Positions 3,748 to 43,358 of a DNA stretch of 56,069 bases are shown here, in pieces. A program made the translations under genes and the position numbers. The stretch is taken from assembly GCA_026389015.1 (NCBI GenBank), contig JAPLIR010000017.1:1-56069 (forward strand). The letters are read 5' to 3'. Within the stretch, counting starts at the first letter, position 1. The number at the start of each line of letters is the position of its first letter. The notes beneath the pieces are model-generated. The model did not search any database. It saw only the letters and a list, made by a program, of their open reading frames with translations, and was not told the origin of the DNA. This stretch comes from Candidatus Babelota bacterium (lineage in GTDB: Bacteria > Babelota > Babeliae > Babelales > Vermiphilaceae).

Positions 3748-3933
3748 AGTACAAGGTTCTATCTTTTTTTACTTGCCTACTATAACAAAGAATTACATAA
3801 GGAATAAAAAAACATTTTTTGTTGATTAAAACAGTAAATAAATAGTATAGAAGAGTATGGGGTAAAATAAAAAGTCTTCATCAAAAAATAACTATGTATA
3901 AGTCGTAACCATTGTTAATCTCTTACTCAAAGG

Positions 3934-4293
3934 ATGAGTCACATGAAACAAAGAATCTTCAAACTATTTTTTATGATTTCCCTACTGGTATCATTGCCAG
4001 CTCTTGCAATGATGTCACAAGAAGAGTCAGCACTCTATGCTCTTAATAAAGAGTTGAACAACTCGCTCGTTTACATCAACAGCCGCACACAAGCAAGTAT
4101 TCTTGAATTAGAAAATCTATTACCGCATCACCAGTGGTCAACAGAATTTAAAGACTTATGCCAAGACATCAAAGACGAAGGCAACGTGGCACAAGATAAA
4201 CATGTTGCATACGTAATCAATGAATGTCTTGAAGCATGCAAGAATCTTTCATGCGATCAAGAGCAGATCTTACAAACTACAAACAAAGATTAG
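3934..4293 (+). CDS. Hypothetical secreted protein (signal peptide, Cys-containing)
   Basis: 119-aa ORF with RBS-like aaggatgag. Hydrophobic N-terminus [17 protein letters not shown]. No recognisable domain. Confidence 0.5.
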
Positions 4294-6661: not shown

Positions 6662-7723
6662 TTAACCACATAATCCTTCTAATCTCATATACTCCGCGGC
6701 GCCGTATAAACTCACGTTATAGTCGGTAATAACATAAATAGGGATATTTTTTAAAAGATCTTTTTGTTTACCACAATTAATAAACTCATTCAAAAAACTT
6801 TCTTGCTGAAACAATTGCAAATTTTTTGCAGCTATGCCACCAGCAATGTAAATGCCGCCACGAGATAATGAATCAAGCGCAAAGTTCTTTGCACAACGAG
6901 CATAAAAGTGAGCGTAAAAATCAAAGGTATGCCAGGCATGTTCGTCAATAGTGCGTGAGTTAAAGATTTCATCCGGATGCAAACCGCCTTTTGCCAAAAA
7001 ATCATTTGGCTTTACCGCGCCATTGTATTGGCAGAAAAACTTATACATATTCTTAATACCAGTGCCCGACAGCACATCTTCCCACGAAATATTACAATCG
7101 CAGTTGTTAGTTTTTTTCAAAAAATTAACTAACGCAAACTCAATTTCTGACTGCGCAGCAAAATCGGCATGACCACCTTCAGAAGCCACCGGAACATACA
7201 TCTTCCGGTCCTTCTCCCAAAACATGATGCATTTGCCAAGGCCGGTACCAGCACCCAAAATTGCTTTATTAGTTTTACCATGAGCAACCGCATGATTAAC
7301 CGACACTAAATCCTTTGCATTAATACAAGACAAACCATAACCAATGACTTCAAAATCATTGGTTAAAAATACACACGAGAGCCCTGTTTGTTTTACAATC
7401 TCTTGAGTGTCGATAATAAAATCTAAATTGGTTGGTTTGCTATAATCACGATCAGCAGAAACAACACCCGCAGCAGCAAAACAGGCATGGTGAACCGTAA
7501 TGCTGTACCTATCTTTTATATGCAGTAGCACTTGATTGACCAGATCACTAAAGCTTACAATTTCCTGGCTTTTGGCATGCAGGGACAAAAGAAGGCTTAA
7601 GCCATCATCAGGATGTTGGAAAATACCAAAGTTACTATTAGTACCCCCAATATCGCCTACCAAAATAGCCCGAACATTGCGCGGAACCTCTTGTACATAA
7701 ATAACTTCGCGTAATGTAAGCAT
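6662..7723 (-). CDS. glk: Glucokinase (Glk family)
   Basis: 353 aa. N-terminal ATP-binding motif LVGDIGGTNSNFGIF (Glk: LVGDVGGTNARFAL). Convergent with the thioredoxin cluster; adjacent to the PPP operon. Confidence 0.75.
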   Translation of the reverse strand: MLTLREVIYVQEVPRNVRAILVGDIGGTNSNFGIFQHPDDGLSLLLSLHAKSQEIVSFSDLVNQVLLHIKDRYSITVHHACFAAAGVVSADRDYSKPTNLDFIIDTQEIVKQTGLSCVFLTNDFEVIGYGLSCINAKDLVSVNHAVAHGKTNKAILGAGTGLGKCIMFWEKDRKMYVPVASEGGHADFAAQSEIEFALVNFLKKTNNCDCNISWEDVLSGTGIKNMYKFFCQYNGAVKPNDFLAKGGLHPDEIFNSRTIDEHAWHTFDFYAHFYARCAKNFALDSLSRGGIYIAGGIAAKNLQLFQQESFLNEFINCGKQKDLLKNIPIYVITDYNVSLYGAAEYMRLEGLCG

Positions 7724-26303: not shown

Positions 26304-26882
26304 TTAAATAGTTTCAGTTTCATAACTGGATGTCTCTACTTTTTCTAAGTCCTTTAATTCTTGCTTAATGAGTCTTGTCTCTTGAATGCAGATTTCATAT
26401 TTTTTAACTAACCTCATTATAAAATCACGCTCAAAAGCGCATCTTATTAAAAAAAATCTTAATGATTCAAATGATTTAACACCCTCTTCTTGATAGACAA
26501 GACCCTCACTTAAAATATTTTCAATGTTCTCGTTACTATCGCATTTCTTACAAAAATCGAACAAAAAATCGTTTACAAAACTTCTCGATTCATCAGCTAT
26601 TCTTTGTTTTTCTTCTTCTGATAATCCGCCAACACCATTTTTTACTTCTAATTCAGCGGTTTTTCTTTTTATAAGTTCTCTAAGAAGATATTGCGAATCA
26701 TCATGAAACGAACGGAGAATTTCATCTCTTTTGGCAATCATCTCACCAAGATCTGAAAGCTCCCGCTCTTTTTGAAATTCAACGACTTTAAGTTCTTGTA
26801 TGCGCGCCTTCACATCATTGCCATAACTAGCAATAGCAAAAGGCAATAGAAATACGGTTAAAGATACGCCTTTATAATTCAT
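26304..26882 (-). CDS. Paralog-family A secreted coiled-coil protein (solo third copy)
   Basis: 192 aa. N-terminus MNYKGVSLTVFLLPFAIASYGNDVKARIQELK is near-identical in pattern to 27855..28424 and 40633..41181. Conserved SFESLRF and KYE motifs. Confidence 0.5.
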   Translation of the reverse strand: MNYKGVSLTVFLLPFAIASYGNDVKARIQELKVVEFQKERELSDLGEMIAKRDEILRSFHDDSQYLLRELIKRKTAELEVKNGVGGLSEEEKQRIADESRSFVNDFLFDFCKKCDSNENIENILSEGLVYQEEGVKSFESLRFFLIRCAFERDFIMRLVKKYEICIQETRLIKQELKDLEKVETSSYETETI

Positions 26883-27295: not shown

Positions 27296-27868
27296 TTATT
27301 GAGGTGCATACTTAGTAAAATTGTTCATCGTCTTATCAACTCTTTGGCTACCACCAGCGAGAGCTAATCTACAAGCTAGAGATTGACAAGCCATAGGAAC
27401 ACCAACTGGGTTTCTTTCCGATGTTTGATTTTTAGAAAGGCATCTGCCGAACTCGACTTCCGTAACAAAAGCTTCCTTTTTTTTAGCTTCTTCTTCTGCT
27501 GCAATCATCTGTGCTAAAGTAGGATGATAAGATCTGTACACTTTATAAGCCACATAAACGCCTACACCAGCTCCTGTCCCAACTGCTACATAAGGTGCAG
27601 CAACAATAGCTGCTGCCTTAACCGCAACAGCACCAGATTTTACTGCACCCACAGTTGCTGTTACGCCTTCACCTATTTTCTCTAAAGCTCCCACACCAAA
27701 ATAATAGCCAAAGCCCGTCGATGCCGTAACAACTGCTGGTAGGTTCTCTTTTACTCCTTCAATAATTGTTGTTGCTGCCACTTCACCCATAGCCTTAATT
27801 GCAAAGATATTTGACTGGACAGTAAGAATTAAAAAAGAATATAATAAGATCATTTTAATATATTTCAT
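27296..27868 (-). CDS. Paralog-family B: secreted Gly/Ala-zipper protein with conserved Cys-containing C-terminal domain ending KYAPQ
   Basis: 190 aa. Signal peptide. GxxxG-rich hydrophobic stretch (GVGALEKIGEGVTATVGAVKSGAVAVKAAAIVAAPYVAVGTGAGVG). C-terminus EFGRCLS...ACQSLACR...FTKYAPQ conserved with 41190..41837. Overlaps the upstream family-A gene by 14 nt. Confidence 0.5.
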   Translation of the reverse strand: MKYIKMILLYSFLILTVQSNIFAIKAMGEVAATTIIEGVKENLPAVVTASTGFGYYFGVGALEKIGEGVTATVGAVKSGAVAVKAAAIVAAPYVAVGTGAGVGVYVAYKVYRSYHPTLAQMIAAEEEAKKKEAFVTEVEFGRCLSKNQTSERNPVGVPMACQSLACRLALAGGSQRVDKTMNNFTKYAPQ

Positions 27869-28424
27869 GTGTTGACCTATTTTTTAATGCAGTTAATTCT
27901 CGACTAAATTTAATTAACTCTTCTACGCATGCCTCATACTTGGCTACAAGCTTTTCCAACAACATGTGCTCAAGAATCGCTCTTGTTAATATAAATCGTG
28001 CAGATTCAAAGGACGTTGCAGAATCAATATTCTCTTGATCATAGAGCCCTTTTGTAAGCATGCCCTTAATCTCTTGATTGGCCCCTAGAGCGACTACAAA
28101 CTGTTTTACAAATTCATTCAGTGAAGCCTGCATAATTATACCAACCTGCTCAAATTCTTCTTCTGATAGGTCCTTTCCATGCTTTCTTGCTATTGCATCA
28201 GCTTTCTGTCTCTTAATTGTATCCCAAAGAATTCCTATATTTTGCCTAGCACATCGAAGAATCTCATCTCTTTCGGCAATCATTTTACCAAGGTCAGAAA
28301 TCTCCAACTCTTTTTCAAAATACTTTTGTTCAAGCTCTTTTATACGCGCCTCAACATCATTGCCATAACTAGTTATCGTAACTGGCAATAGAATAAAACT
28401 TAATAACATGCCTTTATAATTCAT
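27855..28424 (-). CDS. Paralog-family A secreted coiled-coil protein
   Basis: 189 aa. MNYKGMLLSFILLPVTITSYGNDVEARIKELE. RBS aaaggaac. Confidence 0.5.
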   Translation of the reverse strand: MNYKGMLLSFILLPVTITSYGNDVEARIKELEQKYFEKELEISDLGKMIAERDEILRCARQNIGILWDTIKRQKADAIARKHGKDLSEEEFEQVGIIMQASLNEFVKQFVVALGANQEIKGMLTKGLYDQENIDSATSFESARFILTRAILEHMLLEKLVAKYEACVEELIKFSRELTALKNRSTHEIY

Positions 28425-28495: not shown

Positions 28496-28723
28496 TTAAC
28501 TCTTAAACCCATCAAAAAACTTACCCTCAAACCAATAGTTAAAAATTGTACTGGCAACCATATATATTAATGCAATTAATATATATAGATGAGCGTTTTC
28601 CCATACAAAAGGAATAAACAAATTCCAATTAAAAAAACGGCCAACGAAATAACCAATAATAGAACCAATTATTAATGCCATTAAGTGATAAAATGGAGTT
28701 TTTGCATATTTTAATAGCTGCAT
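28496..28723 (-). CDS. Small hydrophobic membrane protein (2 TM)
   Basis: 75-aa ORF between the family-D and family-A genes. No paralog detected elsewhere in the window. Confidence 0.3.
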   Translation of the reverse strand: MQLLKYAKTPFYHLMALIIGSIIGYFVGRFFNWNLFIPFVWENAHLYILIALIYMVASTIFNYWFEGKFFDGFKS

Positions 28724-29474: not shown

Positions 29475-29789
29475 CTATTTCTTTTCAGTTGCAGATTTTT
29501 GCTGAGTAAAATATTTGTAACCCTGATGAGCAGCTACTGCAGCGCCCGCAACAACAAGAGTACTCGGAAATAAACAACAGCCACCCTTTACTATTGCCGT
29601 GGTTGTTGGCCAGGCTACATAAGCAACTGTAGCGGCTGCTGACGCCTTACTAATACCACTTGTTGCTTGTTGTTGATTTTTTGCGCCTTCATTCGGCTTA
29701 TTTGCTGGAAACATAGCATTAGACAAACCATGTGTAGCTAACATCAAAAAAGCAACTGCAACTATATTTCTTTGTACCATTATTGGCAT
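29475..29789 (-). CDS. Paralog-family C: small secreted/membrane protein with Gly/Ala hydrophobic segment and Lys-rich tail
   Basis: 104 aa. Pattern AAATVAYVAWPTT...GAAVAAHQGYKYF...KK parallels AASVGIGFGVAKVVLAYTAPYIGLAHAVTAAGISGYHTYK...KKDK of 39272..39580. Confidence 0.45.
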   Translation of the reverse strand: MPIMVQRNIVAVAFLMLATHGLSNAMFPANKPNEGAKNQQQATSGISKASAAATVAYVAWPTTTAIVKGGCCLFPSTLVVAGAAVAAHQGYKYFTQQKSATEKK

Positions 29790-30431
29790 CCTATCATCAT
29801 TAAAAGTTAATAATTATTTTTCTATTTTTCTCATTGCGTAAAATGCACGGCATCAAAAAACTCTCAATTTATTGGTAAGAGCCCTTTCGAATAATATGTT
29901 AATAATATTTACTTGATTTTTTTACTTCACTAAAATTCAACTGTACTCGCGACAAAACATCAGCATGAATGCGACATAAAGACATCCGTCAAAAGTTTTT
30001 AATCTGATTTTATACGTAATGAAATTTGTTTAATCTGTTTGTCTTGATTAAGCATTAAATGCGACAAGCCGCCTGAAAAAGATCGTAGAAAAATTGAACG
30101 TGTAAAAAAACTATTGTTGCATACCATGAAAGGTGTCCGATCGTACTTAAAGAGTGATGATAACGTGCCCATATTTTCATGATCGCTTAACATACATGAA
30201 ACTGTAACATCTAAATCTTAGGATGATTCGTGTTAATTTAGTGTTATATCTATACGGCGCCCTTTCACATGGCAAAGACCGAGAAGTCTTATTGAAAAAT
30301 GAGGAAATCTTATTTTTAATTATTTGCTGCATATCACGATAGTCGACAACTCAGTTAAAGTCAACAAAGATAGACAAAAGAATAAATTCGGTTAGGTTAT
30401 GCACAAAGAGTTATTTTTACTAAGGAGAGCC

Positions 30432-30635
30432 ATGGCAAATAGTTTACATGAATTAAAGAACGAACAAGATGCAATGCGATTGCAATTATTTGAATTATAC
30501 AAATCAGGAAACAAGTCTATTTTAGGCACATCAAAAGACATAAAGATTGCCTATACTTCCTTGCGATCTTTCATGCTGGGTAAAAAACTGAGCTACCTTA
30601 ATTTGTTGAAAATAAAAGAATGGCTCAAAGATTAG
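30432..30635 (+). CDS. Small HTH-like DNA-binding protein (about 68 aa), paralog of 38560..38775
   Basis: ORF opens at 30399. Start MANSLHELKNEQ (RBS aaggagag). About 75 percent aa identity to the 38.6-kb copy. Segment GTSKDIKIAYTSLRSFMLGKK resembles Cro/XRE-type helix-turn-helix. Confidence 0.5.
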   Translation: MANSLHELKNEQDAMRLQLFELYKSGNKSILGTSKDIKIAYTSLRSFMLGKKLSYLNLLKIKEWLKD

Positions 30636-31531
30636 ACCGTCATTAAATAGTTTGCTCGCGTCGCACCATCTGGATGGCCAGATGCAACTGCCTGTGGAAG
30701 ATGAGCAAGAAGTCCCATATGTTCTTTTTTGTATTCATTAGATATCTCCTGACAAGCAGCAAAAAATTGTGCTGCTGCATGAATTTCTTCTGCAGTGCTG
30801 TAGCGCGCTGCAAACATATCTGCTTTTTTTTCTTCGTAATAGGTAAATAATGCATTTGAACTATAACTCAAACATACGTCAGTCGTACCTCCGGCAAGCA
30901 TACCAAGCATAATCGCAGCAATAGGGTATGACATAAGCAAACATGCAACACCAATGCCAACAAATGCTACGCATGCTCCAATGACACCGCAGATGATAAT
31001 CTTTTTTATAGAATAGTTATGATAAATATGACCAAGTTCATGCCTGAAAATAAATCGTTGTGCATCTTCGGTAAGCATCGTATTAATTTTCTTATGAAGT
31101 TCTTTTGTATTCTCAGGAAGGGCCGCGACAACGGGCTCTAATAGTTTATACACACTTTTTACCTGGGCATCATGTTCAATGTTTTTCCACATACGCGGAT
31201 CAATAATTACGGTATTTAATTGGGCCATGGCGATGCCATCGCCAGCATATGCATACCTAATATCAATGGTATCAGGATTTAATCCACAGGCTGAAATCTC
31301 CTTATCAAACGCAACTTGATATTGTTGTGATGGATAATAATGCAAACCTCTTGTCTGGCTCTGAGCTCCTGAATAATTTAGATAACCAACATATCCACCC
31401 ATTGCTAATGAACAAAGAACAATGGCCGTGCGACTACGAAACATAGTTGGATTACCATAAGCCAAAAAAATCAAAGGAATGGAAAGATTAAAGACACCAA
31501 GAGCTTGTTGCAGCAACATCGAACTTATCAT
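30632..31531 (-). CDS. M48-like zinc metallopeptidase (HExxH...E), membrane-associated
   Basis: 299 aa. FRHELGHIYHNY (HELGH of the M48/HtpX family), downstream EKKADMFAA (third-ligand Glu motif). TM segments. Confidence 0.55.
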   Translation of the reverse strand: MISSMLLQQALGVFNLSIPLIFLAYGNPTMFRSRTAIVLCSLAMGGYVGYLNYSGAQSQTRGLHYYPSQQYQVAFDKEISACGLNPDTIDIRYAYAGDGIAMAQLNTVIIDPRMWKNIEHDAQVKSVYKLLEPVVAALPENTKELHKKINTMLTEDAQRFIFRHELGHIYHNYSIKKIIICGVIGACVAFVGIGVACLLMSYPIAAIMLGMLAGGTTDVCLSYSSNALFTYYEEKKADMFAARYSTAEEIHAAAQFFAACQEISNEYKKEHMGLLAHLPQAVASGHPDGATRANYLMTV

Positions 31532-31690
31532 GAAAATTATCCCTATAAAATTTGTATTGGCCTGCTCTTATTGCATACAGGCTTTGATTAGGTAGCTACA
31601 AAGATCAAAAGAAAAACATTAAAGCGTACCATTAACTATCTTTATAAGTAGTTTCGGCCCCCACTTTTTATATTTTCTGAGCTAATATTT

Positions 31691-32704
31691 TTACGCTGGT
31701 TGCCCATCAAGATATTCTTGTGCCGCTTTAATGCGATCCTCATGACTTGGATGTTCGCCTAATGGTGTATTGTAATAAAACCACTTTAAAATATTATTGT
31801 TTGCCTTGACTAAGTAGTAACGTACATTTAACTCCAAGCGATCAAACAAAGCTAACTTTGACTTATTTTCTTCTAACTTAATATAAGTCTCTAAAAAATC
31901 AGCTTCTTTATTTTGTTCTTTTTGCTGAAGATCTTCACAGAACTCGATCAATCCTTCTCCCTTACCATTTTCTTTATAGGCAAACTCATCAGCTTCTTTT
32001 TCAAATCGCTTATTAATAATTAAAGACACTAAGCCCAATGTAGCAAAATTCTTTATTACATTTTTAAAATAATGGATAATATCGATCTTAGCACGGTACA
32101 TATTGTCAACATGATAACCCAAAATATCGTACCGATTGGGAGCAATATACTCCACTAATTTATGCATTCCTATAGCAATAGGAATTAAAATAGCTAGCTT
32201 CTTATTTACATGATTATACTTTATATGTCCTAACTCATGAGCTAAAACAGCCTCTAAAACTTCGTCCGATGTTTCGAGTAATAATTTTTGATTTATAATA
32301 ATTGCTCCTGTGCTTGTAAAAAGTTTACAAGCACAAGCATTAAAAAAACCACTATCCGTAGTAAGAAAGATGGTTGGTGTCTTCATATCATTCTGCTTAC
32401 AAATACTGTCTACATATGAATACATTTTCGGCATCGTAACAGGCGTTACTACAATTCCATGCATTAACATAGTAAACATAAAACGCAAAAGTCGTTGAGA
32501 CCGAGTAAGCTCTTGATAATTTTCGATCGCCGTTTTAATATTTCGTAGATCCGGATGAGCATCTTCATTAAAAATAATTTTGTAATTTAAGCTATTTTTA
32601 AATGCTTTGAGCTCCTGTTTATAAACACTGGTTTTTTGTTCTGCCTGAGCAACTCCCATGCAAAAGATAAAAGCTAATAAACACGTCTGACGAATTAAAT
32701 ACAT
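31691..32704 (-). CDS. M48-like zinc metallopeptidase, paralog of 30632..31531
   Basis: ORF opens at 32767. Start at MYLIRQ (RBS aggataaa). Signal/TM N-terminus, LAHELGHIKYNH, EKEADEFAY, C-terminal HPSHEDRI. Confidence 0.55.
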   Translation of the reverse strand: MYLIRQTCLLAFIFCMGVAQAEQKTSVYKQELKAFKNSLNYKIIFNEDAHPDLRNIKTAIENYQELTRSQRLLRFMFTMLMHGIVVTPVTMPKMYSYVDSICKQNDMKTPTIFLTTDSGFFNACACKLFTSTGAIIINQKLLLETSDEVLEAVLAHELGHIKYNHVNKKLAILIPIAIGMHKLVEYIAPNRYDILGYHVDNMYRAKIDIIHYFKNVIKNFATLGLVSLIINKRFEKEADEFAYKENGKGEGLIEFCEDLQQKEQNKEADFLETYIKLEENKSKLALFDRLELNVRYYLVKANNNILKWFYYNTPLGEHPSHEDRIKAAQEYLDGQPA

Positions 32705-32847
32705 AAATTTTATCCTGAGCAATGAAATAGTTATTTTGTTGTTTCCATCTAAACGCCACTGCTTCAAAACTATTCATCTCAGATTTCACGCTAGAACTAT
32801 AGCAAATATAACAATATTCGTCGTTATTTGTGTTGCAGTATAAACAA

Positions 32848-33453
32848 TTAAAAACTATACCCAAGCCCGGCGCCAAAAATGGCTCCACTCACGTTAGCCT
32901 TTACTGATTGCAATCCCATTAAACAATCACAATCATTGCTGCCCACTTTTACAAAACTATAATCAACGAACAAATCAATCAAAAAATTACAATCCATACG
33001 ATAATTTGCGCCTACTTTTGCTATCCCACCAAAGCCCCATTTCGATTGATTTGCAAAAACAAAATCAGAACAGTTTTTTGTGCGAACATTCACTGGTTGA
33101 AATCCTAAGCCAACATAAAAGTCAACGCGATCATCACACATGCGCTCAAGATACTTTACCCCAAGAGCCAAAGGAATCAATTTCACGGTTGTCTCATCAC
33201 AAAGCCCAATGGAGTGTCCTTTTTTGTGAAAATAATTAAAGCCGGCAAAAGCATACCATGGGGTATCTTCGCACACTTGCACCGTAAGCTCCGGGCCATA
33301 CAAAGCACCGCCCTTGCCATAAATATTTTTAAATTCAGAATCAGTCGGCTTGAAGTAAGCACCCTTGAATTCTAAAATAATGTCTCTTGCCTGCAATGAA
33401 AAAACAAAAAATAATGAAACTAAAAAAGAACGTATTGTTTTACCTGTCATCAT
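32848..33453 (-). CDS. Small outer-membrane beta-barrel protein (OmpA/OmpW-like 8-strand type)
   Basis: 201 aa. Signal peptide, alternating beta-strand pattern, C-terminus GAGLGYSF (aromatic-x-aromatic terminal Phe). Confidence 0.6.
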   Translation of the reverse strand: MMTGKTIRSFLVSLFFVFSLQARDIILEFKGAYFKPTDSEFKNIYGKGGALYGPELTVQVCEDTPWYAFAGFNYFHKKGHSIGLCDETTVKLIPLALGVKYLERMCDDRVDFYVGLGFQPVNVRTKNCSDFVFANQSKWGFGGIAKVGANYRMDCNFLIDLFVDYSFVKVGSNDCDCLMGLQSVKANVSGAIFGAGLGYSF

Positions 33454-33471
33454 GATTTTACTTCCTACTTT

Positions 33472-34863
33472 TTAACAATTTTGTGTAACAGTTATTGCAA
33501 GTGGCTCTGAAGTGGTGCCAACAGCGTTAGTGCCCACCACATAATATGTATATACCACATTTGGCGATCTATTGTGGTCTAAAAATTGCAGCGGAGCTGT
33601 AGCTGGAACAATGGCAACTAATTCAGTTAATGCAGCATCACGATAAATAGAATAACTCACCGGCAATGATGAACCTGTTGCACTCCAGGTTAATTTATTT
33701 ATCAAATCTCTTTGGAGCAAAAACACATTGTGCGTTTTGCAACCCTGTCCCGTAATTTGAAACGATTGCAATGCTATAACATCAACGGTATTCGATGTGT
33801 AATTAGAAACATACGCGTAGTGACCATTGGGAGATATTGCAATTGCATCAGGAGATTGTCCAACTGGTATTATTGGAGGAATTACGGTATTGGTGGCAAT
33901 ATCAATAATATTCACGGTGCCTTGTCCCGCGGTTAAACCAGTGAATGCAGGGGCGCCGTTGGAATACAGCGTATTATAGTTACTCACATAGGCATAGCGG
34001 CCATCGGGCGTAATGGCAATGCCCGAAGGCTGTATGGCAAGATCAATCATTTTAATTATTGTATTACTTGTTAAATCAACTACAGCAACGGTTGTGCCTA
34101 TTGGTGCAAAATTGTTGCTCCCAAAATTAGTGACATAGGCGTACTTGCCATCGGGTGTTATTGCTATAGCAAATGGTCCAGAGAATCCTGATATCGTACC
34201 AACTACTGTATTGTTACTCGTTTGTATAATATTGATAAGGCCAGTACCAGGAAGGCCACCACTGTAGGTAATAACATAAACAAGTCCACCATCAGGTGCT
34301 ATTGCCAATGAAGCAGGAGCAAGATCCACAATAATTGGTGGTCCCACAATAGTATTGGTATTCAAATCAACAACACGTACCGTGTTTCCATGACCACTGC
34401 CAAGGATTGGTCCGCCATAATTATTCACATATGCTGTAGTACCATCAGGTGTTATTACCATGCCGGATGGTCCATCAAAACCCCCAATCAAGCCTGTAAC
34501 GGTATTAGTCGCTATATCTACAATAGAGATTGTCGCGGCATTGCTATTAGCTACATACGCTTTTGTGCCGGCCGCATTAATAGTCACCGTATACGGCTCA
34601 CTAAAAGTGGTACTCGTAATAGTTTGCTCAAGAAGATTATCCGTGAGATTTAATACACTCACCGTATCCTCACCAGCAATGCCATAATTATTATTGTTTG
34701 CAACATAGGCAAAATGATTATTTGGTGTAACAGCAAGCCCAGCAGGTGTGACACCTGTAGTAATTGTCGCAACCACGGTATTAGGCGCAACTGAATACAC
34801 GTGCGATGACGTTAATAACAATACAAAGCTTAAAAAATAATGCCTCTGAATTTTTTCTATCAT
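33472..34863 (-). CDS. YVTN-family beta-propeller repeat protein (secreted)
   Basis: 463 aa. Signal peptide. Repeated about 40-aa units with AYV(A/T)N...V(S/D)V(I/L)D...TN pattern (FAYVANNNNYG, AYVANSNAATISIVDIATN, AYVTNFGSNN, AYVSNYNT, AYVSNYTSNTVDVIAL). Confidence 0.65.
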   Translation of the reverse strand: MIEKIQRHYFLSFVLLLTSSHVYSVAPNTVVATITTGVTPAGLAVTPNNHFAYVANNNNYGIAGEDTVSVLNLTDNLLEQTITSTTFSEPYTVTINAAGTKAYVANSNAATISIVDIATNTVTGLIGGFDGPSGMVITPDGTTAYVNNYGGPILGSGHGNTVRVVDLNTNTIVGPPIIVDLAPASLAIAPDGGLVYVITYSGGLPGTGLINIIQTSNNTVVGTISGFSGPFAIAITPDGKYAYVTNFGSNNFAPIGTTVAVVDLTSNTIIKMIDLAIQPSGIAITPDGRYAYVSNYNTLYSNGAPAFTGLTAGQGTVNIIDIATNTVIPPIIPVGQSPDAIAISPNGHYAYVSNYTSNTVDVIALQSFQITGQGCKTHNVFLLQRDLINKLTWSATGSSLPVSYSIYRDAALTELVAIVPATAPLQFLDHNRSPNVVYTYYVVGTNAVGTTSEPLAITVTQNC

Positions 34864-35052
34864 TACAATCCTCTCTAGAAAAATAGTATTACAATGCTCA
34901 TATGCTGAAATACTATCCTAGAGGTTCTCTCCGCATCGTGTCAACAGATCTCCAGAAACCTAATAAGTGTTTGTTTTTTAATACGAGGTATAGTCAAAAA
35001 CGAATAACCTGATAACATTCAACAAAAAACATGTCCATAAAAAAGGATACGT

Positions 35053-36069
35053 ATGTTACTCATGAAGCGCTACTCGAGCATGCTCTTGCTGGGAGTTTAT
35101 TTGCAAAGTCTGGCCACCGTTGACCCAGCTGAAAATAGAGCCCTACGCAATATTAGACAAATCACCAACCCATCAATGGGTTTTGAAAAAGCTGGAGAAT
35201 CATATTTTTCTCCCGATGGTAAAACGCTTATCTTTCAAGCCGTACCAACGGGTGAAAAACAGTACCAAATTTATTCAATTGATATCGAACAAGGCGCACC
35301 ACACTTGGTGAGCACGGGCCGCGGCGCCTGCACCTGCGCATTCTTTAGACCTGATGGGCAGAAAATAATTTTTGCTTCCAGCCACGATGCTCCTGCTATG
35401 GATGATGAAGCTATGCAGACAGTGCCAGGATATCAACGCGACACTAAAAACTATGTGTGGGAATTTACACCCTACATGAATATTTACCAAGCCAATCCGG
35501 ACGGCACGGACTTAGTGCCCTTAACCAGTGGGCCTGCGTATTGTGCAGAATGCGCTTATTCGCCCAATGGCAAGCGCATCGTGTATGCAAGCAACGCTTG
35601 CGGGTCTATGAATCTTTATACTATGAATGCCGACGGCTCAAACGTGCAGCAAATTACCCACACAACCTCTATCTATAATGGTGGTCCATTTTTTTCACCT
35701 GACGGCAATTCAATCGTCTACCGAACCGATCCGGAAAAAAAAGATTACTTACAAATTTACGCTATCTCCCTCAATGACGGCCACACACAACAACTGACTA
35801 TGAACGGCGCGGTGAACTGGGCGCCATTTTGGCATCCGAATGGTAATATAATAGCTTTCACCACCTCACTGCATGGCCACCATCAATATGAAATTTATTT
35901 ATTAAATATTCACACACAAACTTTGTATCGACTCACGTACCATACAAGCTTTGATGGGTTGCCCAGTTTTAATAAAGATGGTACTCAAATCACCTGGACT
36001 TCCAAAAGAGGTCCGGACCAAACGTGCCAAATTTTTGTAGCTGATTTTGTTATGCCAGAAAATTTTTAA
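35053..36069 (+). CDS. TolB-like PD40 (WD40-like) beta-propeller protein, periplasmic
   Basis: 338 aa. Signal peptide. Repeated FSPDGKTLIF / YSPNGKRIVYAS / FSPDGNSIVYRTD / WHPNGNIIAFT PD40 motifs. Confidence 0.65.
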   Translation: MLLMKRYSSMLLLGVYLQSLATVDPAENRALRNIRQITNPSMGFEKAGESYFSPDGKTLIFQAVPTGEKQYQIYSIDIEQGAPHLVSTGRGACTCAFFRPDGQKIIFASSHDAPAMDDEAMQTVPGYQRDTKNYVWEFTPYMNIYQANPDGTDLVPLTSGPAYCAECAYSPNGKRIVYASNACGSMNLYTMNADGSNVQQITHTTSIYNGGPFFSPDGNSIVYRTDPEKKDYLQIYAISLNDGHTQQLTMNGAVNWAPFWHPNGNIIAFTTSLHGHHQYEIYLLNIHTQTLYRLTYHTSFDGLPSFNKDGTQITWTSKRGPDQTCQIFVADFVMPENF

Positions 36070-36079
36070 AGGATACTTT

Positions 36080-37500
36080 ATGAAACTATTTCGTGCGCGA
36101 AAACACACACAGATTAAAATGAAAGATCGGAGACTTTTGTCGGAGATCTTTCAGGGCAAAAGAATAGTATTAATTACGCTCATCGTTACGCGCTGCCTTG
36201 GCTCAGACAACCAAACAGATCTCCTAACGCCGGTACTCGTTGATAAGCCACTTCCTTTTAGCATTTGCGTGAAGCCTTCGAGTATTACCATACCTGGAGG
36301 GATACAATCATCTGCAGCAGGACAATGTGAGTCTGAAATTCTTTTGATAGCCGGACGTACCAATGGACTGCATAATTTTAACAACGACAATAACAACTTC
36401 CCACCGAGTCAGCAAAACACTACCATATTTGTTGTAAACATGCATACAAAAAAAGTGAGTTCTCAACAGCTCCACAGTACTATCAATCTGATGAAACACT
36501 ATATATTACCGGTGGTTATGGCGTTGATACAGCTACCGGAAATTTTTCCACTAAAGATACTCTCACGGCCATTGATGTTCCCGGCCTTATGCATTGGGTA
36601 AAGCACCCCAATTGCCCCTCGCATGCATCAAAGTATATTCGTCAAATTTCAAATCCTGTTTTTCAAGTAACAGGAGGCGCGATGTATCAAGTAGGCAAAA
36701 ATCCAACACTGCTTATATTTGGCCAAAATTTTGCAGGTTTTTATAATGGTTCTTCAAATGGCGATTACACACAACAAGTGCGTAGATTTCGTATCGTTGA
36801 TAATGGTGACTATCTTGGCGTAATTGTGTATCCAGCTACACCACCAAACCCAAATTATCGTCGCAGAGATTTAAATGTTGTCCCTATCGTACAATATAAT
36901 AAAGATGACAAAAAAGTTCCTGGCTTTGTAGCCCTTTCAGGAGTTTTTACTCTCAATACAGGCATTTGGACCGTGCCCGTTGAGATTACCACTAACGGAC
37001 AACCTTCAATGGCTGACCCTACCCTATCGGCAACCTTCAAACAAGGAATGAATAATTACGCATGCCCTCATGCTGAACTGTTATCAAAACATGGCAATAT
37101 GTACACGATATTATTCGGCGGCATTACCTTCGGATTTTTCCAAAATAAAACATTTCAAACCGATTCTGAAATTCCATTTACTAATCAAATGACGATAGTT
37201 AAACGAAATCGTTGCGGCTTATATGAACAATATTTACTACCTACCCAATACCCGGTAATTCTTTCAAAAGCATCAAATCCCAATAACCAGCTGCTGTTTG
37301 GAGCTGGCGGCATATTCATTCGCGCATGTGATATTCCTACAACCTGCAATAAAGTGATAAACTTAAAAAAAATTAAAAAGCCCACAGTGATTGGTTACAT
37401 ACTCGGCGGCATTCAAAGCACCTTACCTAACACCAATACATCTTCAGACTCGGCTGCATCACCCTATATTTTTAAGGTTATACTCACGCCACATTGCTAG
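36080..37500 (+). pseudogene. Kelch-like beta-propeller protein gene interrupted by a frameshift at an A7 homopolymer (about 36445-36451): ORFs 36047..36601 (frame 2) and 36589..37500 (frame 1) are one gene
   Basis: Frame 1 is open from 36394 and encodes ...SEFSTAPQYYQSDETLYITGGYGVDTATGNF... continuous with the 303-aa ORF. Frame 2 encodes ...TTIFVVNMHTKK up to the A-run. GGYG / FGG motifs. Could be a genuine pseudogene, programmed slippage or a sequencing error. Confidence 0.4.
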
Positions 37501-37514
37501 ATAAGAGAGAAAAA

Positions 37515-38474
37515 ATGAATACATTAAAATTAATACTACGCTCACTTAATGTAATTGCCTTACTAACCCTTGAATTGTATCCGATTACCTTAACGCCTCC
37601 ACCAAGCCCACGTGAATGGTTTCAAGCTGCAGACAATAACCAAAAATTGTCGAGCTTTCCTTATATAACGGGCGACACTTTGCGGACACTTGCTTCGTGT
37701 TGCATCGATGAATTAAGAATTCCGTTTAATACCAATGACATACATGACGGCGACATTATTTTTGTACGATCAAATTTAATCCCCTATTTTTTTGATGTAG
37801 TTCATCCGCTGCTCCAAGCACACTACATTTTGATTTCTCATAATGAAGACAGCCCTGCCATACGTAATTATGAAAACTTTCTTGATGACGAAAAACTCAT
37901 TGCATGGTTTGCCATGAACGTAGAGATTACTCATCGACATCCCAAATTGCATTTGATTCCCATTGGGATTGCTAACTCCTACTGGCCCTTTGGCAACGTA
38001 GAAATATTAGACGAGGTAACAAAAAAATTGCCCAACATCCAAAAACAACATCTGCTGTATATAAATTTTTATTTAGAGGATACACGAGCTTCCCGAATAC
38101 CGATCTATAAACTGTTTCTTAATAAACCATGGGCATACAGACGATATGGCAGACCTTGGAATGAATACTTAGAAGATCTTGTATCATCGCTGTTCGTTCT
38201 CAGCCCCCATGGCAATGGATTAGATTGCTACAGAACATGGGAAGCACTTCTTATGGGAAGCATCCCCGTCGTCAAAACATCATCGTTGGATCCATTATAT
38301 GATGATCTGCCGGTTGTTATTGTGCAAGAATGGGAAGAAGTAACTGAAGAATTTTTAGTGCAAAAATATCGCGAGATAAGTACTAGAGACTTTAAGATGC
38401 AAAAAATATATGCGCAGCATTGGCTGTATTTAATAAAAGAGTGCCAGAAAAACTTCTTACATGCTACGCGTTAA
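37515..38474 (+). CDS. Putative glycosyltransferase-like protein (C-terminal motif resembling exostosin/GT-B nucleotide-sugar binding segment)
   Basis: ORF opens at 37494. Start MNTLK (RBS aagagag). Segment SPHGNGLDCYRTWEALLMGSIPVV resembles the ...G...R..EAL..GCIPV motif of GT47/GT-B enzymes. Assignment tentative. Confidence 0.4.
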   Translation: MNTLKLILRSLNVIALLTLELYPITLTPPPSPREWFQAADNNQKLSSFPYITGDTLRTLASCCIDELRIPFNTNDIHDGDIIFVRSNLIPYFFDVVHPLLQAHYILISHNEDSPAIRNYENFLDDEKLIAWFAMNVEITHRHPKLHLIPIGIANSYWPFGNVEILDEVTKKLPNIQKQHLLYINFYLEDTRASRIPIYKLFLNKPWAYRRYGRPWNEYLEDLVSSLFVLSPHGNGLDCYRTWEALLMGSIPVVKTSSLDPLYDDLPVVIVQEWEEVTEEFLVQKYREISTRDFKMQKIYAQHWLYLIKECQKNFLHATR

Positions 38475-38559: not shown

Positions 38560-38775
38560 TCAAATCTCTTTGACGCCTTGCAACCAATCTTTAATTTTCA
38601 ATAAATTAAGAGAATGCAATTTCTTACCCAACATAAAACTTCGTAGTGACGTATATGGAATATTAATGTCTTTAGAAGTTTTTAGAATAGATTTACTTCT
38701 CAATTTGTACAACTCAAATAATTGTAATCGTATTGCATCTTGTTCATTCTTTAATTCATGTAAAGACGTTATCAT
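38560..38775 (-). CDS. Small HTH-like DNA-binding protein, paralog of 30432..30635
   Basis: 71 aa. MITSLHELKNEQDAIRLQLFELYK...TSKDINIPYTSLRSFMLGKKLHSLNLLKIKDWL. Upstream region also conserved with the other copy. Confidence 0.5.
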   Translation of the reverse strand: MITSLHELKNEQDAIRLQLFELYKLRSKSILKTSKDINIPYTSLRSFMLGKKLHSLNLLKIKDWLQGVKEI

Positions 38776-39271
38776 GGCTCTCCTTAGTTAAAACCTATTT
38801 GTGCATAACTTAACCTTTTTTTTTATTTTGTCTATTTTATACAGTATTAACTGAGTTATTGACTTTAGCGTATTTATCTAATATCGTAAGAAACAGTAAG
38901 TAGTTTCTCTAAAAAATTTTGCACATATAAAGGCAGTTTATGTACAAGTCTTCTCGCCAAATTCTTTCTCCAAATCTTCATTTATTTATAATAATTTCAG
39001 GCAACGCGCTCACAAGTTAATTGAACCAATAGACTCTGTCTCGCTCGTTTTTTGCGCGCATTCAAATAAAGAAAATATGTCTAATTTTTTGTTACTCATT
39101 CCAGCTACCAAAGACCATAGATTGGATTAACATCTCAAGCCAAATTTGAGAAATGAAAGGACAAGCATGTAAAATCCTCCGATAAACTTAAAATTATAAA
39201 CTAAAGGGGATAGCAATTAGCAAAAAATATTCAAAAAAAATCCTTATATTTAACCACAGAAAGAATCCATC

Positions 39272-39580
39272 ATGTTGCAACGTAAGCAGTTGTTTTTCAG
39301 CTTATTTTTCCTCACAGCATTCGTAGAAACAAGTTCATTTGCAATGGACAATAATCAAGACAATAATAAAGCTTCTTTGTTAAGAAAAGCAGCCAGTGTT
39401 GGTATTGGTTTCGGTGTAGCAAAAGTAGTACTGGCATATACGGCGCCATATATCGGATTGGCGCATGCTGTTACCGCAGCAGGTATTTCTGGCTATCATA
39501 CTTATAAATCTGTATCGACGCCTCTTAAAGATACCGCTACAAAAACTCCAGCTCCTTCAGAAGAAAAGAAGGATAAATAA
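39272..39580 (+). CDS. Paralog-family C small secreted/membrane protein
   Basis: 102 aa. Signal peptide, Gly/Ala hydrophobic segment, GYHTYK, K-rich tail. Paralog of 29475..29789. Confidence 0.45.
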   Translation: MLQRKQLFFSLFFLTAFVETSSFAMDNNQDNNKASLLRKAASVGIGFGVAKVVLAYTAPYIGLAHAVTAAGISGYHTYKSVSTPLKDTATKTPAPSEEKKDK

Positions 39581-40173: not shown

Positions 40174-40336
40174 TATGAGAACATGGTTTTTTTATTTTTA
40201 TTGGTATGAACTAGTTATAGGTGTCTTGTTTACCTGGCTTATACTGTATTATATGAAATGGTATGTTCTAAACGGCGAAGATGAATTCGTCATTATTTCT
40301 CGATACTTAAGAAAACGTTTTTTTAAGGAAAAATAA

Positions 40337-40632: not shown

Positions 40633-41181
40633 ATGAATTATAAAAGCATATTTTTTAGCATAGCGCTATTACCCTTTACTCTTTCTAGTTATGGAAACAA
40701 TGTCGCTCGAATACTAGAACTTAAAGAGATGAGGTTTCAAAAAAGGCTTGAGATTGCCGATATTAGTAAAAGAATAAGCGAAAGTGAAACTATTATTAAT
40801 TCATCAGGATCTCTCTATCAAGAATTATTTGAGTCAGTTCTTGAAAGAGAAAAAGAATTATTTAAACAAAAAAACGACATAAAAAAACTAGACGAAAAAG
40901 ACGTTGAATTAATTACTAAAGAAATTAACGCTTCTAACGATTCTTTTTTAAAATTATTCGAACAATCTATTGAACAAAATAAGAATATTAAACAGATTCT
41001 GATAAAAGGTTTTTTTGATGAAGAAAATCCTAATGAATTTGGTTCATTTCAATCCCTGCGATTTTTATTTGTAAAAGTTATTTTAGAAAGACAATTCATT
41101 GAAGAGCTTGTTGCAAGATATGAAGACAAGATCCAAGAGCTTATTAATATTAATCAAGAATTAGAAAAATTACAGCAATAG
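40633..41181 (+). CDS. Paralog-family A secreted coiled-coil protein
   Basis: 182 aa. MNYKSIFFSIALLPFTLSSYGNNVARILELKE. Conserved SFQSLRF and RYE motifs. Confidence 0.5.
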   Translation: MNYKSIFFSIALLPFTLSSYGNNVARILELKEMRFQKRLEIADISKRISESETIINSSGSLYQELFESVLEREKELFKQKNDIKKLDEKDVELITKEINASNDSFLKLFEQSIEQNKNIKQILIKGFFDEENPNEFGSFQSLRFLFVKVILERQFIEELVARYEDKIQELININQELEKLQQ

Positions 41182-41189
41182 GAAATATT

Positions 41190-41837
41190 ATGAATTACAA
41201 TAAAAACATTATGATACGCACGCTTTTGATAAGCATGACACTAACAACAAATTTCCTACAAGCTTCTTTGTATGATACAATTAGGAATTGGTTTTCAGCC
41301 CCTAAACCTATGCTTGTAGCCAGTGTAGAAAAAGCGAATGAAGTATTGACAACTCACTTACCTGCTACTAATGAATTATCATCAAATTTTGGATCGAGAT
41401 TTGGCTATGAAACCGTTGCACTTATTGGTTCTGGTTTAGCAGCTACAGGGGCAAAAGTAAAAGCAGCATGCATAACTGTGGGTGGCACTGCAAAGGCAGG
41501 GGCATTGTATGTTGCTGCTGCACCTGCAACTCCTTATATTGTCGGCGGCGTAGTGGGTACTTTGGGTACTTATGGAACATATAAAGCTTATAAATACATT
41601 AGCCAAAAGCCAACTTCAGAACAGGAGATTGCAGCAGAAAAAATGTATAAAGAAAAAGAAGCCCTTGTTGCAGAGAGAGAATTTGGTCATTGTCTTTCAA
41701 ATAATTATACATCCGCAAGGAATTCTCTCGGTGTTCCACTTGTCTGTCAATCGGCGGTATGCAGATTTGCTGTAGCTGCTGGCAGTCAAAAAGTTGAAGA
41801 AAAACTAAGCGCCTTTAATAAATACGCTCCTCAATAA
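41190..41837 (+). CDS. Paralog-family B Gly/Ala-zipper protein with conserved Cys-containing C-terminal domain ending KYAPQ
   Basis: 215 aa. Starts 8 nt after the family-A stop. C-terminus EFGHCLSNNYTSARNSLGVPLVCQSAVCRFAVAAGSQKVEEKLSAFNKYAPQ. Confidence 0.5.
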   Translation: MNYNKNIMIRTLLISMTLTTNFLQASLYDTIRNWFSAPKPMLVASVEKANEVLTTHLPATNELSSNFGSRFGYETVALIGSGLAATGAKVKAACITVGGTAKAGALYVAAAPATPYIVGGVVGTLGTYGTYKAYKYISQKPTSEQEIAAEKMYKEKEALVAEREFGHCLSNNYTSARNSLGVPLVCQSAVCRFAVAAGSQKVEEKLSAFNKYAPQ

Positions 41838-41942: not shown

Positions 41943-42395
41943 CTAAGAACGTCTTTTTATTGTCTGAATCATCTCTTCCAATGACTGTAAAAAACAAGAG
42001 CGATCCTGCTTTGAAAAAGTAGCGTTATAACTTGAAGCTACGCTTGTTTCACGTAAATGAGCACGTAAATCACGCATTGCTTTTGCAACACCTATAGTAT
42101 CATTATTAAAAATTCTACCCGTTGGGCTCAGAACGTTTACACACTTTTTCAAGCACCGCTCTGCCAGTAATATATCGAAGGTAACCACAATATCACCAGT
42201 CTCTATATGTTCTTCAATCCAATTATCTGCAGCATCTAGATCAGACTCAACCCGTATTTTGTGCACGTTTTTATCAACTATCATATTAAGGCGACTATTA
42301 CTTACTAAATAAACCTGCAGGTTATGCCGCATAGCCACCCGAAAAATTTCTTCCTTTACAGGACAAGCATCAGCGTCTACGTAGATATTTAACAT
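41943..42395 (-). CDS. YaiI/YqxD family protein (UPF0178, DUF188)
   Basis: 150 aa. N-terminus MLNIYVDADACPVKEEI is the hallmark of UPF0178. Confidence 0.65.
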   Translation of the reverse strand: MLNIYVDADACPVKEEIFRVAMRHNLQVYLVSNSRLNMIVDKNVHKIRVESDLDAADNWIEEHIETGDIVVTFDILLAERCLKKCVNVLSPTGRIFNNDTIGVAKAMRDLRAHLRETSVASSYNATFSKQDRSCFLQSLEEMIQTIKRRS

Positions 42396-42676: not shown

Positions 42677-42922
42677 CTACCATAATCTTTTCTTAGCAAA
42701 TGCCCTACCTGATTGAGACTTCAAATAGTGTTCAAATTGTTTTGCTCTATCCATATCTTTAAACATCATACAAATGACTAACTCCCAAGGCCTATCTTTC
42801 CTTGTATGAATAGACCCACCTGAGTTGTGTGTTTCCAACCGTTCCTCAATATTAGTTGTATAACCAACATAAAAAGTTTCTGGAATATTAATAGAACGTA
42901 TCATGTAAACATAGAAAAACAT
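42677..42922 (-). CDS. Small GIY-YIG nuclease-family protein (UPF0213/YhbQ-like)
   Basis: ORF opens at 42964. Probable start MFFYVYMIRS. GIY-YIG core FYVYMIRS...FYVGYTTNIEERLETHN. Confidence 0.6.
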   Translation of the reverse strand: MFFYVYMIRSINIPETFYVGYTTNIEERLETHNSGGSIHTRKDRPWELVICMMFKDMDRAKQFEHYLKSQSGRAFAKKRLW

Positions 42923-43064
42923 AAGTGGAATTTTCTTAAAAAAAACTGGAATGAAGAATATCAACTTCTTATTGGGGCCGGTCCGTCTTCGTTCCTCGTA
43001 AACTCGGAACTACTTCGGACAGTCTCCGCAACTAACATTTAAAGTAATTTTTTCTTCCATAAGT

Positions 43065-43108: not shown

Positions 43109-43186
43109 TGGCGTCCCTGAGGGGATTCGAACCCCTGTTTTCGCCGTGAAAGGGCGACGTCCTAGACCGGGCTAGACGACAGGGAC
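43109..43186 (-). tRNA. tRNA-Glu (anticodon UUC)
   Basis: RC folds as a cloverleaf: acceptor gtccctg/cagggac, T-arm agggg-ttcgaat-cccct, anticodon stem tcgcc/ggcga with loop ctTTCac, 3' CCA encoded. Confidence 0.8.
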
Positions 43187-43282: not shown

Positions 43283-43358
43283 TGGTGAGCCGCGTTGGAT
43301 TCGAACCAACGACCCACAGCTTAAAAGGCTGTTGCTCTACCGACTGAGCTAGCGGCTC
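43283..43358 (-). tRNA. tRNA-Lys (anticodon UUU)
   Basis: RC gagccgctagctcagtcggtagagcaacagcctTTTaagctgtgggtcgttggttcgaatccaacgcggctcacca: canonical cloverleaf, CCA encoded. Confidence 0.85.

Follow-up and report, generated by a model that had tools for sequence, protein, structure and literature searches.

This report concerns two adjacent genes, here termed A and B, which occur as a pair twice in a 56,069 bp contig of a Candidatus Dependentiae (TM6) metagenome-assembled genome with NTX86_ locus tags; the whole contig was analysed and is referred to below as the window. Members of this phylum occur widely as obligate parasites of protists, and no function is known for the majority of the proteins that they export. 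A and B were found to constitute a genuine, conserved gene pair, in which a gene for an exported coiled-coil protein (A) is followed at once by a gene for a protein with a signal peptide, a Gly/Ala-rich segment and a strongly conserved C-terminal two-Cys domain (B). The two products are tentatively read, with somewhat less than even confidence, as co-expressed, Sec-exported subunits of a mobile envelope module specific to Dependentiae (TM6/Babeliales).

The first pair of the window is encoded on the reverse strand. A1 (27855..28424, −) is an open reading frame (ORF) of 189 aa that matches the hidden Markov model (HMM) of the A family with E = 3e-56, and B1 (27296..27868, −; 190 aa; B-family HMM, E = 9e-59) combines a signal peptide and a Gly/Ala-rich segment with a helical stalk and the conserved C-terminal domain. 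The second pair consists of the ORFs A2 (40633..41181, +; 182 aa) and B2 (41190..41837, +; 215 aa), each recognised by the HMM of its family. The coordinates given for these four ORFs in the first-pass annotation agreed with the ORF list, and both of its gene junctions were confirmed: A1 and B1 overlap by 14 nt (ATGAAATATATTAA), the ATG of B1 lying 14 nt inside A1, and the genes of the second pair are 8 nt apart, an AGGA ribosome-binding site (RBS) straddling the A2 stop codon. Translation of B1 from its first ATG gives a protein starting with MKYIK, in agreement with the family consensus M-K-x-I-K. B1 and B2 are 40% identical (E = 3e-42). Six-frame HMM scans of the window returned exactly three A and two B genes; the third A paralog, A' (26304..26882, −; 192 aa; A-HMM, E = 2e-56), lies downstream of B1, and the three A copies share 38–42% pairwise identity. 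No B pseudogene or remnant was detected by these scans anywhere in the window, including the region after A'. The earlier description of one A-B pair in each of two arms was therefore right about the two pairs; it had missed the unpaired third A gene (26882..26304), and the pair forms just one portion of a larger cassette, which is repeated.

For the analysis of pairing at other loci, contigs with B homologs (L002, L003–L005, L011–L012, L013) and with A homologs (L001, L006–L010, L014–L015) were fetched, and all of their ORFs were scanned with the HMMs of both families. The search for A homologs gave 18 matches. A B gene on the same strand followed the A gene at a distance of −55 to +28 nt in 11 of 15 non-redundant cases (both window pairs, L001, L002 twice, L003, L006, L007 twice, L011 and L014), and in three of the four loci that had been seeded with B an A gene stood directly upstream. 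The adjacency proposed from the window is thus conserved, and B homologs elsewhere are frequently found next to A homologs.

Homologs of B were collected by an exhaustive HMMER search with a profile of B1 and B2, which gave 146 cluster representatives at E ≤ 1e-3 (47 with E ≤ 1e-10); a word-indexed search with B1 returned B1 itself as the sole match. The 146 representatives are 69–324 aa long, mostly 140–260 aa. Few of the matches carry organism names, and those names are exclusively Candidatus Dependentiae and Candidatus Babeliales. Most members share an N-terminal signal with the consensus M-K-N-I-K-K-I followed by a hydrophobic run, and the N-terminal region is strongly diversified across the family. 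Next come a Gly/Ala-rich segment and a juxtamembrane motif (A-P-A-T-P-Y ... G ... Y-G-G-Y-K-V-Y-R-Y-Y-N-P-T-x-E-Q, with Pro116 conserved in 89%), a variable helical spacer, and a C-terminal module with the consensus F..CL..N....R...G.P..C(E/Q)..A..(F/L)A..AG...(V/L)(D/E).....F. This module occupies aa 132–190 of B1 (27299..27475, −), and its conservation was assessed from column statistics over the 146 homologs. In B1 numbering, the most conserved positions are P158 (99%), C161 (98%) and G156 (95%), which define a near-invariant G-x-P-x-x-C motif; its partner cysteine, C143, is present in 75% of the sequences and C166 in 12%. The first-pass annotation had proposed a conserved module with three cysteines that ends in KYAPQ. 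The module itself is retained throughout the 146 homologs, as are two of its three cysteines; C166 is not, and the KYAPQ ending is confined to a subgroup that includes the two window copies. The C-terminal module of B is accordingly a strongly conserved two-Cys domain of about 60 aa.

The central segment of B had been described as a GxxxG/AxxxA zipper. When small-xxx-small pairs at spacing i,i+4 were counted, 14 were found, against expectations of 11.3 and 12.4 from 5000 shuffles (P = 0.13 and 0.29). Since the register is not enriched over shuffled sequences, the region should not, on this evidence, be termed a glycine zipper; its appearance follows from its composition (about 45% Gly/Ala/Ser). 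The Pfam glycine-zipper families PF13488, PF13441 and PF05433 were likewise matched by none of B1, B2 and the two window C proteins introduced below (hmmscan against Pfam-A, E ≤ 0.1).

Three unusual members of the B family were recorded. The B homolog of L001 has an in-frame TAA (7352–7354) precisely at a Gln codon conserved in B1 and B2, and its head domain reads on in frame for 75 codons past this triplet; judged from the reading frame, the TAA would be either a nonsense mutation, and the gene a recent pseudogene, or an assembly error. In P0135 (213 aa, on 12 contigs) and P0113 (100 aa), an A-like N-terminus (MNYK..LL..P) is joined directly to a B head without the hydrophobic segment. P0135 matched the A-HMM with E = 0.004, and the two proteins may represent a fusion that links the A and B families. 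A relationship between A and B themselves was examined by hhalign and rejected.

Structures were predicted with AlphaFold2 from alignments of 146 sequences for B1 and 19 sequences for A1, and signal peptides and transmembrane (TM) segments were assigned from hydropathy. Residues 100–190 of B1 were modelled with high local confidence (pLDDT 93–98): the end of a hydrophobic helix (96–114) is followed by a long helix (118–146), the conserved loop (147–158) and two further helices (159–172 and 174–187), which together form a three-helix bundle. C143 is placed three residues before the end of the first head helix and C161 two residues into the next, a modelled geometry that would suit a disulfide stapling the head. 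For A1 (pLDDT 83, pTM 0.69), a signal-like helix (4–16) and three antiparallel helices (22–82, 88–114 and 133–188) were obtained. The N-terminal hydrophobic run of A stays under the hydropathy threshold for TM segments and is too short for a TM anchor, so the protein appears to be cleavably signalled and soluble in the periplasm; by this model, A is probably a soluble periplasmic three-helix antiparallel coiled coil. Within the A6 alignment, the signal region (A1 residues 1–20) is among the best-kept parts of the protein, with M1, L12 and P14 conserved at ≥90%. Such conservation is unusual for a plain Sec signal in a family that is only 25–40% identical overall, and the signal region may be retained or specifically recognised.

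The N-termini of B1 and B2 have the n/h/c organisation of Sec-type signals (MKYIK, 12 hydrophobic residues and NIFA). The placement of the B head was deduced from the variation within the family: some members consist of a signal peptide and the head alone (P0113, P0135), and others have a signal peptide and two clear TM segments (e.g., L011 9461–9997). With either design, the head comes to lie on the extracytoplasmic side, in agreement with the conserved Cys pair. The simplest topology common to the family would be a hairpin that turns at the A-P-A-T-P-Y motif, with both ends in the periplasm.

Known families were sought with all cassette proteins. Pfam and NCBIfam scans gave nothing significant, and for B no hit at E ≤ 0.1; 55 isolated B head domains had no match in Pfam, nor had the genes for the helix-turn-helix (HTH)-like regulators described below. 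PHROGs, including its lysis and spanin families, returned no match, and PADLOC left A, B, C, D, E and HTH unmatched. Profile searches of the PDB with alignments of B, A and the B head gave nothing significant; the best match, mitochondrial ATP synthase subunit e (E = 0.12), was taken as compositional. Foldseek searches of the models against viral structures returned nothing at E ≤ 0.001. The suggestion that the pair is of a new type was borne out to the extent that no known family or system in Pfam, NCBIfam, PHROGs, PADLOC or the PDB accommodates it; it is new in this sense, which is distinct from a demonstrated new mechanism.

The pair is embedded in a wider cassette. Upstream of A, a C gene and then a D gene were found in both window arms, in L001, L003, L006, L007 and L011, and in phages; in L002, C is present, but the interval up to the following B gene holds no D. 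Jackhmmer recovered a member of the C family from all cassettes (E = 1e-30 to 1e-79). Its members are built from a signal peptide, an optional N-domain of about 75 aa, the motif GGGP(V/I)TG..Y..TK.LC(W/Y)G and a Gly/Ala/Thr-rich tail nearly without charges, which is either about 110 aa long and ends in CPF(L/C)P or is shorter and ends in ATGP(A/V). C1 (28739..29446, −; 235 aa; jackhmmer family) has the small N-domain and a tail of about 110 aa ending in CPFCP. C2 (39580..40173, +; 197 aa; assigned by alignment) is a short-tailed variant ending in ATGPA, a subtype that it shares with the copies on the plasmid (L003) and in a phage (L016). Other C genes were located at L001 5493–6215, L006 2528–3316, L011 6667–7329, L013 8564–9163, L003 8427–8945 and L016 10720–11199, and copies without the N-domain at L007 4724–5200 and L002 4018–4440. 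In appearance, C is nearer than B to Gly/Ala-rich bacteriocins. The D proteins are membrane proteins of 53–90 aa, exemplified by D1 (28496..28723, −; 75 aa, two TM segments by hydropathy), between C1 and A1, and D2 (40175..40336, +; 53 aa, TM by hydropathy); sequence homology between D copies of different loci was undetectable, and they are positional analogs only. The E genes encode small proteins, namely E1 (29475..29789, −; 104 aa), the first gene of arm 1 with a signal peptide or TM segment by hydropathy, and E2 (39272..39580, +; 102 aa), which is 26% identical to E1. An interpretation of E as a truncated B could not be demonstrated by hhalign.

A small, divergently oriented HTH-like gene precedes the cassette in both window arms, in L001 and in L003. 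The window copies, HTH1 (30399..30635, +; 78 aa) and HTH2 (38560..38775, −; 71 aa; recognised by its similarity to HTH1), are 79% identical, and the gene together with about 100 nt upstream is about 80% identical in DNA between the arms; the cargo of the two arms is only 20–44% identical. A promoter-like sequence (TTGACT-17-TATCGT) occurs in both arms (30364–30336, −, and 38859–38887, +). Scans for promoters and terminators yielded nothing informative. Longer cassettes (L002, L006, L011 and partly L007) have the order C-(D)-B-A-B-B-B. In a neighbour-joining tree, the B paralogs of L002, L006, L007 and L011 group by operon position across genomes, and B1 and B2 of the window group with the phage copies. 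Because the paralogs group by position, they are regarded as distinct, non-interchangeable subunits instead of a variable array, and the conservation of position-specific paralogs across genomes favours distinct subunits of one assembly over a simple toxin-antidote pair.

Carriage of the cassette was observed on three kinds of replicon. The window is ordinary chromosome, encoding G6PD, PGI, ribonucleotide reductase, an SPFH protein, a DEAD helicase, a Legionella-type outer-membrane protein (OMP), TamB and an ATPase of the type II secretion system (T2SS) or type IV pili. L003 (18,783 bp), L004 and L005, from three independent metagenomes, represent one element of about 18.8 kb, which is considered circular since L005 spans the end-to-start junction of L003 at 100% identity; it encodes ParA, a resolvase, a primase-helicase, a DUF1016/YhcG nuclease and DUF4258, and its cargo includes HTH-C-D-A-B-B'. 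In the phage contig L013 (1–14429), the genes C-D-x-B lie on the strand opposite to the structural genes, between those for the large terminase (TerL) and a P22-type portal, with major head and tail proteins beyond. A related phage, L016 (1–17578)/L017 (ERF, RusA, TerL, portal), carries the same insertion with a different C subtype. Relatives of TerL were found on contigs of 35.4–35.8 kb, the phages of this size being SRR25158381_1220732 and ERZ27279678 k141_1591857, and these tailed phages presumably infect Dependentiae. Scans of viral contigs with phage B and tblastn searches of INPHARED phages and PLSDB plasmids gave no match, nor did pattern scans of genome contigs, for which the patterns were too specific or of low complexity. 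Mobile elements of Dependentiae were not encountered in the literature searches.

In the surroundings of the window cassettes, the G+C content of the arms is 0.34–0.35, compared with about 0.39–0.44 in most of the flanking sequence; the 26–42 kb region as a whole (0.34–0.38, with 0.40–0.42 at 34–38 kb) is lower than most of the contig. Genes for tRNA-Glu and tRNA-Lys (43109–43186 and 43283–43358, −) lie about 1.3 kb beyond arm 2, and the 26–42 kb region may be an integrated island. A small GIY-YIG-like ORF (42677–42964, −) and a YaiI/DUF188 gene (41943–42395, −) were also noted beyond arm 2. The segment between the two inverted cassettes (30632–38474) encodes two M48-family metallopeptidases (HExxH), an OMP beta-barrel, a YncE/lactonase-like beta-propeller, a TolB-like PD40 propeller, a 303-aa protein of unknown function and a GT47/RXYLT1-like glycosyltransferase. 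Next to the cassettes of L001 and L011, too, glycosyltransferases (GT2, STELLO) are encoded, and a 514-aa protein with an Ntox37 polymorphic-toxin domain (829–2373, −) and an AAA ATPase (2760–4115, +) are encoded upstream of the L007 cassette.

The model of a mobile envelope module that is tentatively favoured here would operate as follows. B would consist of its signal peptide and a variable Gly/Ala-rich region, of which the last 34 or so residues would dip into the membrane as a hairpin; beyond it, a helical stalk would lead to a three-helix head of about 60 aa stapled by a C143–C161 disulfide. A would be synthesised in step with B, the gene of which starts inside or just after the A stop, and we infer that A would bind B as partner or escort. 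The cassette (C, D, A and B, often with its own divergent HTH gene; long versions have as many as four position-specific B paralogs) would move among chromosomes, a small plasmid and phages, and a cassette that moves in this way is expected to serve an accessory, membrane-directed function, not a housekeeping one. For the export route, the model draws on the T2SS shared by TM6 genomes (PMC4776705) and on the abundance of signal peptides in Chromulinavorax (PMC6561590), both detailed below. Candidate roles would be the exclusion or antagonism of other bacteria or phages in a co-infection, or an effect on membranes of the host once the proteins have been released by type II secretion; phage lysis would be less likely. 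Each of these roles taken singly is much less likely than the general model.

Several observations weigh against this model. The N-terminal half of B was poorly modelled (pLDDT 41–59), and fold searches returned generic helical bundles only. The hydrophobic stretch of B1 (aa 73–106, 34 aa) is marginal and B2 has none above threshold, so the membrane insertion and topology of B are uncertain; on an alternative, possible reading as a signal peptide with a single TM segment, the head would lie in the cytoplasm. Four of the 15 A genes (A' of the window, L008/L009, L010 and L015) have no B, and many B genes have no A. Finally, a phage gene for a small exported coiled-coil protein at the position of A could not be detected as an A homolog by hhalign and is an architectural analog only.

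A bolder form of the envelope-module model was also considered, although it is judged unlikely: the products of C, D and A, together with as many as four position-specific B paralogs that share a disulfide-stapled three-helix head, could build an unrecognised heteromeric envelope machine. Such a machine could be a new pore or fibre, or a device for adhesion or secretion, directed at membranes of hosts or competitors and spread by phages and plasmids. If this were true, the cassette would be a mobile determinant of the interactions of Dependentiae with their protist hosts or among themselves.

Among the alternatives to the envelope module, the one that survives best, itself unlikely, is that A, B and C are host-directed effectors, which would be exported by Sec, released by the T2SS or in outer-membrane vesicles, and associate with a protist membrane, that of the vacuole or of the mitochondrion, by insertion or as a coat, much as Inc-like proteins do in other intracellular bacteria. 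The restriction of the family, among named matches, to the protist-infecting Dependentiae is in keeping with this proposal, as is the design of B, which joins a hydrophobic hairpin to a coiled coil and has a strongly diversified N-terminal region. A T2SS is shared by TM6 genomes and core to them according to PMC4776705, in the consulted passages of which a type III secretion system goes unmentioned, and a T2SS/type IV pilus ATPase gene is present in the window. In Chromulinavorax, 44% of the coding sequences have signal peptides, with enrichment in genes without known homologs (ORFans); the effector repertoire proposed there consists mainly of ORFans with signal peptides, and vesicles of the outer membrane were observed (PMC6561590). 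However, the cassette proteins have no eukaryote-like domain, the passage of A, B and C through the outer membrane is conjectural, and the small TM proteins of the D type and the divergent regulator suit a module of the bacterial envelope better.

Slightly less probable is an antagonism module of the bacteriocin or toxin-immunity kind, in which a secreted, membrane-active B or, more plausibly, C would kill competitors that lack the cassette, with D or A protecting the producer. As with many bacteriocin loci, carriers of the cassette include a small plasmid and phages; two divergent variants stand in one genome under near-identical regulators, C is Gly/Ala-rich and Cys-flanked with a small TM protein immediately after it, and an Ntox37 gene lies near the L007 cassette. 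Yet bacteriocin, microcin and immunity models in Pfam and NCBIfam were all unmatched, and a double-glycine leader or an ATP-binding cassette (ABC)/C39 exporter was found in none of the loci read. The B paralogs are orthologous by operon position, unlike arrays of orphan immunity genes, and the cassette belongs to obligate intracellular bacteria whose genomes are reduced.

An interpretation as a phage lysis or spanin-like module is improbable. D proteins would serve as holins, A and B would span the periplasm like i- and o-spanins, and the chromosomal copies would be prophage remnants. The cassette does lie inside two related phage genomes, beside TerL and portal, it encodes small proteins with one or two TM segments and exported coiled coils with conserved Cys as in Rz, and no endolysin, holin or spanin was recognised in the readable parts of the phages. 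These parts amount to only about half of each genome. Moreover, the cassette is on the strand opposite to the structural genes and has no muralytic domain, the lysis and spanin families of PHROGs were unmatched, B has no lipobox, and the N-terminus of A resembles a signal peptide instead of a TM anchor. Chromosomes also retain, at a distance from any phage genes, two or more divergent copies that are intact, and long versions whose paralogs are orthologous. Least probable is that A and B are mere neighbours from two expanded and functionally unlinked families of signal-peptide ORFans, given that B starts within 28 nt in 11 of 15 cases with constant order and strand, that the adjacency persists at 25–40% protein identity and across chromosome, plasmid and several metagenomes, and that stop and start overlap, or an RBS spans the stop codon, in the window, even though Dependentiae genomes are rich in exported ORFans (PMC6561590) and four A genes stand without B and most B genes without A.

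Two protein families without annotation, A and B, are thereby described, along with a new Cys-containing domain of about 60 aa and a conserved multi-gene cassette. Should the cassette prove to be a module for exclusion, antagonism or action on host membranes, it would offer a testable handle on the horizontal transfer of virulence or competition traits in the phylum; were it merely a lineage-specific envelope component, it would still lend itself well to the definition of a new Pfam family and to structural study.

The cassette was finally compared with known systems. Class II microcins resemble it in that B and especially C have Gly/Ala-rich, moderately hydrophobic segments and Cys near the C-terminus, one cassette is plasmid-borne, and a small TM protein adjoins C. 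They differ in size (<10 kDa, compared with 190–235 aa here), and the cassette proteins have Sec leaders with no gene for an ABC/C39 exporter or membrane fusion protein; the core of B is, moreover, predicted to be a folded three-helix domain. The analogy with microcin V that had been drawn for B was consequently abandoned: the leader is of the Sec type and not of the double-glycine type, no ABC/C39 exporter was found in the cassettes read, the protein has about 190 aa, and no models matched. With the spanins Rz/Rz1, the pair shares exported or anchored periplasmic coiled coils with conserved Cys, an overlapping or abutting gene arrangement, small TM proteins nearby and carriage by phages. Unlike in spanins, there is no lipoprotein partner, the signal regions of B1 and B2 are without Cys, the N-terminus of A is under the TM threshold, and PHROGs gave no match; unlike lysis cassettes in general, the genes are opposite in strand to the late genes, occur in intact multi-copy chromosomal versions and include no muralytic enzyme. 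For the ClyA superfamily (YaxAB/XaxAB, AhlABC), fold scores were no better than for the coiled coils of Smc, EnvC, PspA or IpaB; its subunits are elongated helical bundles of about 350–400 aa with a hydrophobic head hairpin, whereas A and B are half that size, have Sec signals and show no sequence or Pfam relation. The B head differs from CHCH/COA6 proteins in its Cys spacing (Cx17C versus twin Cx9C/Cx10C, which form two disulfides within a helical hairpin) at 12% identity, and the resemblance looks like convergence on a small helical fold instead of homology. Chlamydial Inc proteins have a bilobed hydrophobic domain of 40–60 aa and are secreted by a type III system, compared with the marginal 34 aa stretch of B1 and the sub-threshold one of B2. 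The cifA-cifB genes of Wolbachia prophage WO have no sequence or domain relation to A and B, and their products are cytoplasmic enzymes or binding proteins without signal peptides; like the A-B cassette, however, they are co-diverging adjacent pairs that reside on phages or plasmids of an intracellular bacterium, a single genome holding several divergent copies.

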